From positions 101,546-165,545 of the forward strand of contig JAXGYZ010000002.1 of NCBI GenBank assembly GCA_040772005.1: DNA of 64,000 nucleotides, read 5' to 3'. This document shows positions 19,316 through 62,002 of the stretch, one piece after another. Numbering within the stretch: the stretch's first letter is position 1; each line of letters begins with the position of its first letter. The translations under genes and the position numbers were made by a program. The notes under the pieces were generated by a model. The model was not told where the DNA came from. It worked only from the letters and a program-made list of their open reading frames with translations, and did not search any database. The stretch is from Anaerolineae bacterium (lineage in GTDB: Bacteria; Chloroflexota; Anaerolineae; CG2-30-64-16).

Positions 19316-20383
19316 TTATATCACTTCGATGCCCGTACCCTCCACGACCTCACCGATCACCCAGGCCCCTTGCTCTGCGCGTGCGCAATCGGCCAGGAAG
19401 TCATCCAATCGCGCCTCCGGCACGGCCAGCAGCAGGCCGCCCGACGTCTGTGCATCGTGCAGCAGCATCTCCTCCCAGTCTGCCAGGGGGATCTTGTACG
19501 CGACATGCGGGTTGTAGAACGCATGGTTATTGAGTGTGCCGCCGGGAAAGATGAACTGCTGCGCATACTCGGCCGCGCCCGGCAGCCACGGCAGAGCCAG
19601 GAACCGGATGCGCAGGCAGACGCCCGCAGCCTCGGCCATCTCAAGGGCATGCCCCACCAAGCCAAAGCCGGTGATGTCCGTCGCACCTCGAACGTCCGCG
19701 ACCCTGGCCGCGCGTGAGGCGGCGCGATTGAGCCGCATCATGCTCGTAATGGCTGCGTCAAGGTGCTCCTGTGCAGCCTGCCCGCGCTTGACCGCGGTTG
19801 TGATGGTGCCCGTGCCCAGCGGTTTCGTCAGCACCAGCCGGTCACCGGCCCGCGCGCCGCCCTTCGCAAAGATGCGGTCCGGATGGACGAGACCGGTCAC
19901 GGCTAGCCCGTATTTCGGCTCCTTATCCTGGATAGTGTGGCCGCCCGCGACGGCCGCGCCCGCGGAGCGCACGACGTCCGCGCCCCCGCGCAGGATGTCT
20001 GCCAGGAGGTCGGCGGGCAGGTCGGGCGGGAACGCGGCGATGTTCAGCGCAAACAGCACCTCCCCGCCCATCGCGTAGATGTCGCTCAGCGCGTTGGCAG
20101 CCGCAATCGCGCCGTACTCGTAGGGCGTATCCACGACCGGCGTGAAGAAATCAAGCGTCTGAATGAGCGCCTGCTCGTCATTGAGCCGGTACACCGCGGC
20201 GTCATCCGGCGCGCCCAGCCCGACCAACAAGTTCGGGAATTCGGCGGGCGGAAATAGATTGTCCAGTGAGCGCAAGACCTGCGCCAGCTGCTCAGGCGGC
20301 AGCTTGGACGCTCAGCCCGCGCACGAGCTGAGGCTCGTGAGTTTGATGATTTGTTCGCGTGTCAAGAGAGGCGGCTCCTTCAT
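19316..20383 (-). CDS. selD: selenide,water dikinase SelD, selenocysteine-containing (in-frame UGA read as Sec)
   Basis: The tool ORF (319 aa) lacks the SelD N-terminus. Extending upstream in frame through TGA (plus coordinates 20312-20314) gives MKEPPLLTREQIIKLTSLSSCAG-U-ASKLPPEQ. The TGA aligns with the catalytic Cys/Sec position of the SelD glycine-rich N-terminal motif. ATG 20383 is preceded by an AAGGAG ribosome-binding site. Confidence 0.7.
20276..20311 (-). promoter_or_regulatory. putative SECIS hairpin downstream of the selD UGA
   Basis: mRNA segment GCGUCCAAGCUGCCGCCUGAGCAGCUGGCG contains the stem AGCUGC/GCAGCU with a 7-nt loop starting about 8 nt after the UGA. Confidence 0.35.
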
Positions 20384-22128: not shown

Positions 22129-22881
22129 ATGCTCACATCCAGATACACACGAGGCCGTTGCACGACTGCGTGCGCCGTCCGCCGCGCGGTGATCGTCCTG
22201 CTGCTGGCCGCGGCGCTGCTCACTGCGTGCGTCCCTGTGCCGGCCGCCGAGCCGACAGCCGCACCGCCATCCGCCAGACAGGCGAGCGCGGCGCCCGAAA
22301 TCGTATCCGATTGCGACCTGACGCCCGTCGCGCAGCCGACCATGCCTGCGGAAATCCCCGGTTACGTGCAGCAGGACCCGGCCACCGGCCTGCACATGAC
22401 GGGTCGGCCCCAACTCATAGAGCTGGCAACTTACCGGCTTCAGGTCACGGGGCTGGTGGACCGCCCGCTGAGTCTCACCTATGACGAGCTGCGCTGCATG
22501 CCGAAGGTGGTGCAGGAGTGCAAGTTGGTGTGTCCGGGGTTCTTTCAGGACATCGCGACGTGGGGCGGCGTGCCGCTCAACTATGTGCTGGGCCTGGCAG
22601 GCGTCCAGCCGGACGCGCAGTACATCCTGATGGTCAGCGCGGACGGCTATTGGACCTCGCTGCCGCTGGGCGATGCGCTGGCGCAGGAGAACTTCCTGGC
22701 CTACGAGCAGACCGGCAAGCCGTTGCCCGTGTTGCACGGGTTCCCGGTGCGTGCGGTGCTGCCCCTCCAGCCCGGAGGCAAGTGGGTCAAGTGGTTGGTA
22801 GAAATCCAGGTGCTGGAGGCCGAGCCGCGGCTGGGTCCGGATCCTTCGCTCGTATTTCCGACTGCGGAGCCTGGAAGTTAA
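22129..22881 (+). CDS. molybdopterin-binding oxidoreductase-like lipoprotein (MsrP/YedY-type Oxidored_molyb domain)
   Basis: Lipoprotein signal (LLAAALLTAC), then the domain pattern LSLTYDELRCMPKVVQECKLVCPGFFQDIATWGGVPLNYVL ... GFPVRAVLPLQPGGKWVKWLVEIQV. Confidence 0.5.
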   Translation: MLTSRYTRGRCTTACAVRRAVIVLLLAAALLTACVPVPAAEPTAAPPSARQASAAPEIVSDCDLTPVAQPTMPAEIPGYVQQDPATGLHMTGRPQLIELATYRLQVTGLVDRPLSLTYDELRCMPKVVQECKLVCPGFFQDIATWGGVPLNYVLGLAGVQPDAQYILMVSADGYWTSLPLGDALAQENFLAYEQTGKPLPVLHGFPVRAVLPLQPGGKWVKWLVEIQVLEAEPRLGPDPSLVFPTAEPGS

Positions 22882-22934
22882 TCGCGCGGAGACGCAAAGA
22901 ACGCAAAGTCTATTTTAGATTATTGAATCCGGGA

Positions 22935-22978
22935 CAAAGAAAAGACCTTCGAGGCCGCGCCAGGCTATGCCTGACCTG
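22935..22978. terminator. bidirectional hairpin terminator between convergent genes
   Basis: aaaagaccttcgagg ... cctcgaaggtcttac is a 12-bp perfect stem flanked by A/T runs on both sides. Confidence 0.5.
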
Positions 22979-23033
22979 CGACCTCGAAGGTCTTACTTTC
23001 GGATTGCGCTATGGACGTCGGCTAGTAGTGGTT

Positions 23034-23648
23034 CTATTCGTGTCCGTTATAGGCCATAGCCGGCTGCCAGACTTCCCAGACCTTGCCGACGAGCTTGGGG
23101 CCCGGGGTCAGGGTGGTCCCGCCCGGCTGCCAGCCCGAGGGCATGACTTCGCCGGTGGCGCGGGTGTGCTGGAAGGCCTTGACCTGCCGGATCAGCTCGG
23201 ATACGCTGCGGCCAACGCTCGGCGTCAGCACCTCCATCCCCTGGATGATGCCATCCGGGTCGATGATGAAGCGCCCGCGGATGTCGACGCCTGCATCCTC
23301 GTCATAGACGCCATAGGCCTGTCCGATCTTGCCGCCGCCATCGGACAGCATCGGGAACGGAATACCTTCGGGCGTCATCTTCGCGAGTTCTTCTTCGTGC
23401 CAGATCTTGTGTACGAAGCGGCTATCGGTGCTCAACGAGAGGACTTGGACGTCGAGGGCCTGGAGTTCGGGGTATTTGACGGCAACTGCCGACAACTCAG
23501 TCGGTCAGACAAACGTGAAGTCGCCGGGGTAAAAGCAGACGACTACCCAATGGCCCTTGTAGTCCGACAGTTTGACATTCTGGAATCCGCCCTTGAAATA
23601 GGCCGCGGCCTCGAAATCCGGGGCGGGTTTACCGACACGTGCAAGCAT
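23034..23648 (-). CDS. 2-Cys peroxiredoxin (AhpC/Prx1 family) with selenocysteine at the peroxidatic position
   Basis: Two adjacent tool ORFs (23505-23765 and 23034-23495) are one gene split by an in-frame TGA at 23505-23507. The joined sequence reads GDFTFV-U-PTEL, the universal Prx motif FTFVCPTE with Cys replaced by UGA. The resolving-Cys region and the rest of the thioredoxin fold follow. Start taken at ATG 23648 ([14 protein letters not shown]). Confidence 0.65.
23481..23504 (-). promoter_or_regulatory. SECIS-like hairpin immediately 3' of the peroxiredoxin UGA
   Basis: UGA-CCGACUGAGUUGUCGG-CAGUUGCC: stem CCGAC/GUCGG with a 6-nt loop right after the UGA, plus a second small stem GGCAGUUGCC. 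Confidence 0.4.
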
Positions 23649-23919
23649 TTTGGGCGCCTCCTGTGTGGGGGTGACTGGCGCGGCCGTGGGAGCACTCTCG
23701 CTTGAGATGATCCCCTTTGCCGGCTTGACGCACGAGTCCTTCGGTTCGACCTGTGGTGTGGTCACTCATGGCCTCCTTTCGTGCGATGCGATAGAACCAC
23801 TGGTGACAGAATACACGAAAGTCGACAGTGTTACTATGATATCGCGCAGGTAATCGCAAACCGTTCGCAGCAGCAGGGATCGCCCGATAAATCGTTGTAG
23901 GCGCGGAAAGCCCGCGCCT

Positions 23920-24058
23920 AAACCGATTCCAGAGTGAATGCCCCGGTCAGAACTGAGACAGGATTGACAGGATTGACGGGATTACTCTTGTAAATCCTGT
24001 CAATCCTGTCCAGAATCGCCGCTGGTTTTCACATTGGACTGAGTATAGGTGGCGCGGG
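23920..24058 (+). repeat. about 139-bp structured repeat element, copy A (family of three in this window)
   Basis: aaaccgattccagagtga...gtcagaactgag, then (GACAGGATT)x3 ... (AATCCTGTC)x3 forming a 27-bp-stem hairpin, then cagaatcgcc-CTCTGG-ttttcacattggactgagtatag. More than 90% identical to 60454-60592 and to the reverse complement of 61874-62002. Confidence 0.7.
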
Positions 24059-24084
24059 CTGTGTCATTCCGGTCGGCGCCGGGG

Positions 24085-25137
24085 CTATGCAGGCGCGCCC
24101 GCCTTCGCCGGCAACGGCTCGGCCGCACCGACTGACCCGGCTGGGGGCGCCGGCTCGATGACCGGGCGGGGGTACAGCCCCAACTGCTTGACGATTTCGG
24201 GTACGGCGGCCGGCCAGTTGACGGCCATGATGTGCAGCCCGGCCACGCCTTCGATGCCGCGCACCTGCTCGGCAACTTCCAGGCAGATGTCCATGCCGGC
24301 CTTCTGCTGATCTTCTTTCGACAGGCCGGCCATGCGCGCCACGATGGCGTCCGGCACATCCATGCCCGCGACTTCCGTCTTCATGTACTCCGCTACGCGC
24401 ACCGACTTCATCGGCCCGACGCCTGCCAGGATAGCAACCTTTTCGTGTAACCCCAGGTCCACCACGCGGCGCATGAACTCGCGGAAGCGATCCACGTTGT
24501 AGATGAGCTGCGTCTGGATGAACTGAGCGCCCGCAACAACCTTCTTCGCCAGGCGCATGGGCCGGTAGTCGTAGGGCGGCGCAAACGGATTCTCGACTGC
24601 ACCGATGAAGATGTCGGGCGCAAACTTGGGAATCTGCTTGTTGTTTTCGAACACCCGATTGTTGCGCATCATGCGCGCGATGCGAATCAGGTTGATCGAG
24701 TCGATGTCGTAGACCGGCTTGCACTGCGGGTGATCGCCCCAGATGGGATGGTCGCCGCTCAGGAACAGCATCGTGTTGATGCCGAACACCGAGGCGCCGA
24801 GGATGTCGCCCTGGATGCCCAGCCGGTTGCGGTCGCGGCAGGTGAACTGCACGACCGGCTCCATGCCCGCCTGCTTGAGCATGATGCTCACGGCCAGGCT
24901 GGAGACGTGCACCATCGCGGACTGGTTATCGGTGACGTTGTACGCATCGCCGTAGCCGCGCAGGGTCTTGATCTCGCGCTGGATGGCTTCGAGGTTGGGG
25001 CCGACGGGCGGCGAGACCTCGACGCAGACGGCGAAGTGGCCGGCCTTCAGCACCTTCGCCAGGTTGCTGCTTGCGCCGGTCAATCCGGTCTGGATCACCT
25101 CGGCGGGCGCCGGAATGGGAGGGGTCGGTGCGTTCAT
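24085..25137 (-). CDS. metF: 5,10-methylenetetrahydrofolate reductase MetF
   Basis: Start ATG 25137 (MNAPTPP). MTHFR TIM-barrel motifs (FAVCVEVSPP ... RDRNRLGIQGDILGA ... FLSGDHP). The tool's 465-aa ORF is a 5' over-extension into the metV frame region. Confidence 0.75.
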   Translation of the reverse strand: MNAPTPPIPAPAEVIQTGLTGASSNLAKVLKAGHFAVCVEVSPPVGPNLEAIQREIKTLRGYGDAYNVTDNQSAMVHVSSLAVSIMLKQAGMEPVVQFTCRDRNRLGIQGDILGASVFGINTMLFLSGDHPIWGDHPQCKPVYDIDSINLIRIARMMRNNRVFENNKQIPKFAPDIFIGAVENPFAPPYDYRPMRLAKKVVAGAQFIQTQLIYNVDRFREFMRRVVDLGLHEKVAILAGVGPMKSVRVAEYMKTEVAGMDVPDAIVARMAGLSKEDQQKAGMDICLEVAEQVRGIEGVAGLHIMAVNWPAAVPEIVKQLGLYPRPVIEPAPPAGSVGAAEPLPAKAGAPA

Positions 25138-60453: not shown

Positions 60454-60592
60454 AAACCGACTCCAGAGTGAGTACCGCAGTCAGAACTGAGACAGGATTA
60501 ACAGGATTGACGGGATTACTCCTGTAAATCCTGTCAATCCTGTCCAGAATCGCCTCTGGTTTTCACATTGGACTGAGTATAGAACGTTGCCA
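60454..60592 (+). repeat. about 139-bp structured repeat element, copy B (direct orientation), 15 nt 3' of the rlmD-like gene
   Basis: More than 90% identical to 23920-24058, including the (GACAGGATT)3/(AATCCTGTC)3 hairpin and the CCAGAG ... CTCTGG-TTTT outer stem. Confidence 0.7.
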
Positions 60593-61873: not shown

Positions 61874-62002
61874 CTATACTCAGTCCAATGTGAAAACCAG
61901 AGACGATTCTGGACAGGATTGACAGGATTTACAGGAGTAATCCCGTCAATCCTGTCAATCCTGTCTCAGTTCTGACCGCGGTACTCACTCTGGAATCGGT
62001 TT
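61874..62002 (-). repeat. about 139-bp structured repeat element, copy C (inverted orientation), 14 nt 5' of the rlmD-like gene
   Basis: The reverse complement matches copies A and B. Together with copy B it brackets the rlmD-like gene as an inverted pair. Confidence 0.7.

Follow-up and report, generated by a model that had tools for sequence, protein, structure and literature searches.

The window analysed here is a stretch of 64,000 nt from an Anaerolineae bacterium (assembly GCA_040772005.1, contig JAXGYZ010000002.1, positions 101,546-165,545 of the forward strand), and its gene of interest is prxU, which very probably is a monocistronic gene of an uncultured member of the Anaerolineales (Chloroflexota), encoding a peroxiredoxin (Prx) of the Prx1/AhpC fold with selenocysteine (Sec) at residue 87 and acting by the mechanism described below. 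Two minus-strand open reading frames (ORFs), one of 86 aa with a GTG start (23505-23765) and one of 153 aa (23034-23495), lie in the same frame, and the sole separator between the two halves is the in-frame TGA at 23505-23507. A preliminary description of this DNA had read both as a single peroxiredoxin gene split by that TGA, which the frame, the AhpC-TSA domain and the joined active-site motif bear out, and the range it gave, 23034-23765, is exactly that of the long form. The features that carry the identification are the following.

23034-23765, minus strand: prxU coding sequence, long form, 243 aa including Sec87, with the GTG start at 23763-23765 and the TAG stop at 23034-23036
23505-23507, minus strand: UGA codon of Sec87, the peroxidatic residue of P80-x3-T84-x2-U87, with Arg163 completing the site
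23476-23495, minus strand: predicted selenocysteine insertion sequence (SECIS) hairpin UUGUCGGC-AGUU-GCCGUCAA, conserved and covarying, overlapping the next feature
23489-23504, minus strand: hairpin CCGAC-UGAGUU-GUCGG of the preliminary description, real in the sequence, sharing its 3' arm with the predicted SECIS so that the two are mutually exclusive

Profile and Pfam scans of the PrxU protein, with Sec entered as Cys, matched NCBIfam NF040737 ("peroxi_PrxU") at 381.6 bits against an equivalog cutoff of 270, with residues 10-236 of the protein aligned to positions 2-232 of the 233 in the profile, and the AhpC equivalog TIGR03137 scored 190.7 bits, under its cutoff of 272. Pfam returned AhpC-TSA (3.9e-39) together with Redoxin and 1-cysPrx_C. 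The sequence matches in the PDB are typical 2-Cys peroxiredoxins, aligned over residues 42-224 with E values of ~1e-48 to 1e-50, the alignment to human Prx2 spanning residues 42-222, and an AlphaFold2 model of a close Cys-type homologue, computed with a 54-sequence alignment, gave a template modelling (TM) score of ~0.88 against human Prx2 and AhpC. An alignment with the AhpC/Prx1 and PrxU families had been proposed as a check on the preliminary description, and it turned out in its favour on both sides, through the Prx2-type alignment and the NF040737 score above cutoff. The active-site residues P80, T84 and R163 are all present, and Sec stands at the position of the peroxidatic Cys (GDFTFV-U-PTE).

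A 2026 review (PMC13188914) counts peroxiredoxins as one of the prokaryotic selenoprotein families with an experimental basis and refers to Sohling et al. 2001 (Biol Chem 382:979) for PrxU of Eubacterium acidaminophilum. Taken with the NF040737 match, this listing makes the gene one more member of a curated family that is widespread and found across many phyla, and therefore no rarity. A metagenome scan with the patterns CFYPGDFT and DSxF[VST]HK[IVM]W, both of which exclude the Sec codon, returned at least 600 matching stretches, with a relative encoded in 590 among the matches listed. The earlier statement that such enzymes are rare and known from a few anaerobes is thus outdated, given the listed family, the curated NCBI model and these metagenome relatives.

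Among close loci in genomes and assemblies, 24/24 have TGA where the alignment places this codon. The TGA is kept in eight independent assemblies of the same species from metagenomes (L001-L008), which agree in gene order and were reached via a 133-aa fragment of PrxU called from an internal start, and it stands at the same codon in two Anaerolineae/Anaerolineales metagenome-assembled genomes (MAGs; L009 and L010) with 98% and 95% protein identity; a sequencing error at the TGA, raised in the preliminary description as something to be excluded, is excluded by these eight assemblies and two MAGs. A further 14 genome loci carry TGA at this codon, and 14 distinct TGA sequences come from Anaerolineae, Chloroflexia, Dehalococcoidales, Ignavibacteria, Desulfobaccales, Zixibacteria, Synergistota, Calditrichaceae and Planctomycetota. 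Of the metagenome loci, 80 were kept and 79 were parseable, and TGA was present in 79/79 (again among the matches listed). The nearest Cys forms, with TGC or TGT at this codon, belong to Aggregatilinea and one Acidobacteriota MAG, and TGC or TGT also occurs in more distant homologues.

Public protein databases print Trp at the peroxidatic position in 73 of the best 120 database proteins (P0001-P0120), which could be taken to mean that UGA is read as Trp, or as Gly, under an alternative code, in line with gene calls of the type FTFVWPTE. This explanation has next to no likelihood. The codon behind the printed Trp was TGA in 5/5 loci checked, the false residue arising because gene callers had switched the genetic code and read TGA as Trp; in homologues the only alternative to TGA is a Cys codon, an enzyme with Trp as its peroxidatic residue would lose its catalytic activity, and the SECIS-type hairpin described below is present. 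Moreover, TGA is the normal stop of 9/23 domain-supported genes in the window, so that the standard code applies and the recoding is site-specific. The orthologues of L001-L008 are split publicly into "AhpC-TSA" fragments of 86 and 133 aa, and this splitting, like the false Trp, is a systematic annotation error for the PrxU family in public data. The value of the identification accordingly lies in the right annotation, by which a full-length antioxidant selenoenzyme is restored from two "AhpC" fragments. As a separate observation on public records, the locus L018, from a MAG labelled Candidatus Paceibacterota, is identical in the prxU N-terminus and active-site region to L015 from Dehalococcoidales, and therefore its 3-kb contig may be a binning contaminant.

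The hairpin at 23476-23495 comprises nucleotides +10 to +29 past the UGA, with the apical loop 17-20 nt past it. Its core stem pairs 23488-23491 with 23480-23483 (CGGC-AGUU-GCCG) around the apical loop AGUU at 23484-23487, and in every TGA-bearing relative the stretch that folds into this hairpin encodes (L/V)-(S/T/A)-A-V-A. Of the distinct Sec loci, 14/14 have an intact 4-bp core and xGUx loop, versus 2/62 Cys loci, and the failing Cys-type loci include several that encode the same T/S-A-V-A peptide. In a set of 94 distinct sequences, pairing holds in 83.6% of cells, and the second and third loop positions are G and U throughout (94/94). Pair 24-33 occurs as GC in 68, AU in 22 and GU in three with one failure, and four or five pair types occur at each of the pairs 21-36 and 22-35. 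Both partners have changed in 62 cells, and the observed covariation was matched by 0/500 shuffles. Comparison of these sequences shows that the hairpin has been selected specifically in the UGA-bearing members of the family, at synonymous sites, and its interpretation as a SECIS-type element of the prxU mRNA, with predicted binding of SelB, is well supported.

One of the two Cys loci with an intact core is the Acidobacteriota Cys form closest to the Sec clade (L016, MAG contig JBMFRA010000021.1), in which a TGC codon is accompanied by the SECIS-like hairpin GGCGGC-GGUC-GCCGCC. The persistence of an intact hairpin beside a Cys codon suggests a recent Sec-to-Cys conversion in this lineage.

The preliminary description had also noticed a hairpin immediately after the UGA, CCGAC-UGAGUU-GUCGG at 23489-23504, and had regarded it as consistent with a bacterial SECIS. 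The structure is present as described; the role is not upheld, and it is the neighbouring hairpin at 23476-23495 that is conserved instead. That the structure at 23489-23504 is the functional SECIS is very unlikely, even though it is the minimum free energy (MFE) fold of the isolated window sequence (-8.1 kcal/mol) and also forms in the closest relatives. Examined as a SECIS candidate, it showed zero compensatory changes in sets of 17 and 94 sequences, all variants breaking pairs, with the A-U pair 13-22 broken in 66/94 relatives; it is no better than shuffles, and it competes with the covarying hairpin. Ribosome footprints and the 11-nt spacing in fdhF place the first ~12 nt after the A-site codon inside the ribosome. 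A hairpin that starts directly after the UGA lies within this region, and therefore it could not be presented to SelB.

Selenium metabolism is represented in the same window by a second UGA-containing gene.

19316-20383, minus strand: selD (selenophosphate synthetase), with UGA at 20312-20314 in SSCAG-U-ASK, 3 kb downstream of prxU on the same strand

The SelD protein exceeds the TIGR00476 cutoff of 125 bits with a score of 384.2 and carries the Pfam domains AIRS and AIRS_C, and a GC-rich hairpin with GGUCU in its apical region follows the UGA on the 3' side. At the level of sequence, selD is confirmed as itself selenoprotein-encoding, so that the earlier claim of a Sec-containing SelD in this organism holds. 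A screen for further in-frame TGA candidates in the window left only selD and prxU as credible. The identification of prxU indicates selenocysteine use in this anaerobic Chloroflexota lineage.

Several results weigh against Sec decoding or against the proposed SECIS. The lower stem of the hairpin at 23476-23495 contains one U-U mismatch in the window, and the MFE fold of the single sequence favours the competing hairpin at 23489-23504; evaluated energies in the window are similar, at -8.9 kcal/mol for the SECIS and -8.1 kcal/mol for its competitor. Single-sequence folding against shuffled controls (z = 0.06 and -1.09) did not tell the SECIS from chance; only the comparison among relatives did. 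Rfam gave no match, either over the whole window at gathering thresholds or over 23380-23600 at permissive E-values, which indicates that no curated model covers the PrxU SECIS. ARAGORN found no tRNA in the 64-kb window, and hence no tRNA-Sec, and neither SelA nor SelB turned up in Pfam scans of 20 further ORFs of the window.

That tRNA-Sec, selA and selB are not seen in the window would also fit a pseudogene created by a nonsense change from TGC or TGT to TGA, or a sequencing or assembly error, in which case the two ORFs would yield no full-length protein; standard gene callers indeed split near-identical copies into the fragments of 86 and 133 aa. The probability of such an origin is close to negligible. 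The TGA recurs in the eight independent assemblies, the two MAGs and all 79 parseable metagenome relatives listed, across many lineages; both halves of the gene are intact and conserved, selection on the hairpin at synonymous sites is confined to TGA-bearing genes, the protein matches the curated PrxU model and a selD with its own Sec codon lies nearby. The assignment of the UGA to Sec at the peroxidatic position, as first proposed in the preliminary description, therefore stands on the NF040737 score, the Sec/Cys pairing in homologues, the conserved SECIS and the UGA-containing selD. By analogy with the E. coli fdhF model, a complex of SelB, GTP and Sec-tRNA(Sec) would bind the hairpin while the UGA is in the ribosomal A site and insert Sec87; under selenium shortage the product would end at residue 86.

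Once inserted, the selenolate of Sec87 would attack the peroxide with the aid of Pro80, Thr84 and Arg163 and be converted to a selenenic acid. The route by which this selenenic acid is reduced involves a further set of features.

23142-23144, minus strand: codon of Met208, where typical 2-Cys peroxiredoxins have their canonical resolving Cys
23535-23537, minus strand: codon of Cys77, ten residues before Sec
23730-23732, minus strand: codon of Cys12, in the N-terminal arm motif S-C-V-K-P-A-K-G (C-x-x-P-x-x-G-P), a candidate resolving cysteine
23657-23662, minus strand: internal Shine-Dalgarno (SD)-like AGGAGG, 8 nt 5' of the in-frame ATG at 23646-23648 (Met40), for a probable short form of 204 aa

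In the alignment to AcePrx-1 and human Prx2, GEV-M-PSGW of PrxU stands opposite GEV-C-PAGW, which means that the resolving Cys of a 2-Cys enzyme is missing from its canonical place. The "2-Cys" label of the preliminary description consequently fits the subfamily and not the protein itself, whose residue there is Met. Among members of the PrxU family this position is occupied by T, M, A or L. Two sequences, the locus L024 from a Calditrichaceae MAG and the protein P0120, keep the canonical resolving Cys (AEACPAGW / AEVCPAGW) together with Sec, the Cys of the N-terminal arm and the Cys at -10, and this type could represent evolutionary intermediates.

Two other cysteines are specific to the family. 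The Cys at -10 from Sec (Cys77) is present in 24/24 close TGA loci and in 79/79 metagenome TGA loci among the matches listed, and it forms an invariant column in the 54-sequence alignment; in Cys-type relatives from outside the clade the residue is mostly F or Y. Cys12 is likewise invariant in 54 aligned long-form homologues, in which the Pro at +3 is nearly so. Of the database hits extended by 20 aa or more, 67/70 have the arm Cys, as do 75/79 loci of the same metagenome set, two of the other four being cut at the contig end. The N-terminal 39 residues as a whole are conserved in homologues, indels among close relatives stay in frame, and an SD equivalent precedes the long-form start in 15/15 relatives examined as well as in L089 and L093. 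In exported Cys-type homologues the arm directly follows the signal peptide, and the internal Glu and Met are absent. From this pattern of conservation, the N-terminal arm is judged to be a real part of the protein.

As the canonical resolving Cys is gone, recycling would most likely proceed via a selenenylsulfide between Sec87 and a family-specific cysteine, Cys12 or Cys77, which would then be reduced by a thioredoxin-type reductant. Cys12, on its flexible N-terminal arm, is tentatively proposed as the resolving residue, with a probability somewhat under even, and Cys77 is a rather unlikely candidate for the role. A precedent is given by the methionine sulfoxide reductase MsrB1, in which the resolving Cys4 at the flexible N-terminus forms with Sec95 a selenenylsulfide reducible by thioredoxin (PMC1278935).

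A true 1-Sec mechanism, with direct reduction by thioredoxin, glutaredoxin or a low-molecular-weight thiol and no resolving Cys, is a real, if minority, possibility; Cys12 and Cys77 would then serve structure, regulation or oligomer contacts, and the N-terminal extension and the internal SD would be incidental. It accords with the absence of the canonical resolving Cys, the Pfam 1-cysPrx_C match, a short-only clade of Sec-peroxiredoxins that lacks the arm, and the fact that no reductant gene is consistently adjacent: a motif screen of 77 loci found no consistent thioredoxin, glutaredoxin or TrxR neighbour of prxU. It is opposed by the invariance of Cys12 and Cys77 across phyla in the clade, with both mostly absent from Cys-type neighbours, and by the finding that the selenenic acid of MsrB1 is not reducible by thioredoxin without a dedicated resolving Cys (PMC1278935). 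In four low-GC contigs (L089-L092), an 87-aa gene of the glutaredoxin family adjoins prxU on the opposite strand; the window and most loci have no such neighbour.

The armless clade is represented by L174 and L175, on low-GC metagenome contigs, with a stop 16 codons upstream of the start, the -10 position as the only Cys and UAGCAGC-AGUU-GCUGCUA as SECIS; L174 reaches 357.9 bits on NF040737 and begins at the SD and ATG homologous to the internal ones of prxU. In long-form genes an internal start appears to be maintained as well. GGAGG or AGGAG is found 4-17 nt before the internal start in 86/92 distinct long-form loci, versus 4% of windows in the core coding sequence. The residues flanking the internal SD vary (K, Q, P, E or A before; V, E, A, G or D after), with the nucleotides G-GAG-G kept; GAG is used at this site in at least 81/93 loci, and GAA and GAG are equally frequent elsewhere in the same genes. 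In L016 the internal SD lies in the other codon frame and encodes K-G-G. These patterns suggest that an ancestral start has been retained, so that two isoforms of 243 and 204 aa would be made.

Three results count against this view of the arm and its isoforms. In the AlphaFold2 model of the homologue the Prx core is confident, and the N-terminal arm has a predicted local distance difference test (pLDDT) score of ~69, with the linker below 50. The short-only L174 clade works without the arm, which is therefore not generally essential for catalysis. The internal SD falls in one codon frame in 80/81 cases, which leaves a conserved Glu as a possible reason for its retention. That the resolving Cys has been replaced by the arm Cys or the Cys at -10, and that arm-bearing and armless isoforms could co-assemble, is accordingly put forward as a tentative proposal, its probability lying clearly below even. 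The literature that was searched gave no description of a relocated resolving Cys or a dual start in PrxU, and the only potentially new biology suggested by these comparisons is family-wide, namely the relocated resolving cysteine or cysteines together with the dual start. It bears on an open question about selenoenzymes, how a Sec peroxidatic centre is recycled after the normal resolving cysteine has been lost.

The gene appears monocistronic, and its boundaries are marked by the following elements.

23772-23779, minus strand: SD sequence AAAGGAGG of the long form, 6 nt 5' of the GTG start
22942-22994, minus strand: intrinsic terminator of prxU, a long G+C-rich hairpin followed by UUUUCUUUG, folding at -45.9 kcal/mol

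A terminator scan after prxU recovered the distal part of the stem and the T-tract, and a sigma-70 promoter scan of 22850-24120 found no site. The upstream MTHFR gene is set apart from prxU by a palindrome resembling repetitive extragenic palindromic (REP) elements and by a hairpin. The palindromic intergenic element consists of inverted tandem copies of the 9-mer GACAGGATT and occurs at 23957-24010, 60491-60544 and 61912-61965, one of these sites falling between the MTHFR stop and the prxU promoter region; the 9-mer has 12 matches in the window versus 0.01 expected by chance, and the element looks like a REP sequence or a miniature inverted-repeat transposable element (MITE). Directly upstream of prxU on the same strand, from about 24085 to 45612 (minus), lies a contiguous Wood-Ljungdahl/acetyl-CoA pathway cluster containing MTHFR, DUF5981, FolD, a pterin-binding methyltransferase, a CooC-like ATPase, RACo, an NfnAB-like pair, CdhD, ACS and CODH. 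The prxU gene stands at the end of this oxygen-sensitive cluster. As the cluster dominates the window, the host is taken to be an anaerobe, in which a fast peroxidase makes sense.

Among known systems, the best matches in both sequence and fold are the typical 2-Cys peroxiredoxins, such as human Prx2 (1QMV/7KJ1) and Salmonella AhpC. They have in common with PrxU the active-site Pro, Thr and Arg and the C-terminal 1-cysPrx_C region, whereas PrxU differs by Sec for the peroxidatic Cys, Met for the Cys of GEVCP, Cys for the Phe at -10 and the extra N-terminal arm. The Prx-like UxxC thiol:disulfide oxidoreductases and the Prx-SUH proteins with CxxU (PMC13188914, PMC1088965) resemble PrxU in their thioredoxin fold of the AhpC/TSA type and in having Sec in the redox centre; their Sec is part of UxxC or CxxU motifs, in contrast to the genuine peroxiredoxin site TxxU of the window protein. 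With MsrB1 the analogy is functional only: both lack the resolving Cys that is usual in their Cys-type homologues, MsrB1 differs from PrxU in fold and reaction, and the role of Cys12 in PrxU is suggested by its conservation.

The SelB-binding stem-loop of E. coli fdhF has a spacing of 11 nt and a GGUC loop. The PrxU element is likewise a short stem-loop within the coding sequence, ~10-13 nt past the UGA, with G-U in a four-base loop and an imperfect lower stem, and its apical loop is GGUC in many PrxU relatives and AGUU in the window. As the codons for (L/V)-(S/T/A)-A-V-A make up the element, its sequence is particular to the PrxU mRNA.

The closest known system is PrxU of Eubacterium (Peptoclostridium) acidaminophilum, which shares with the window gene the UGA in PxxxTxxU, the Prx1-type fold and the lack of the canonical resolving Cys. 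The characterised enzyme reportedly has 203 aa with Sec47, a length matching the short form from the internal Met, to which the window gene adds a 39-residue arm with a conserved Cys; positions 2-34 of the NF040737 profile take in such an N-terminal arm, as in the window gene. Unlike E. acidaminophilum, the host of the window gene is an uncultured member of the Anaerolineales with a Wood-Ljungdahl cluster.

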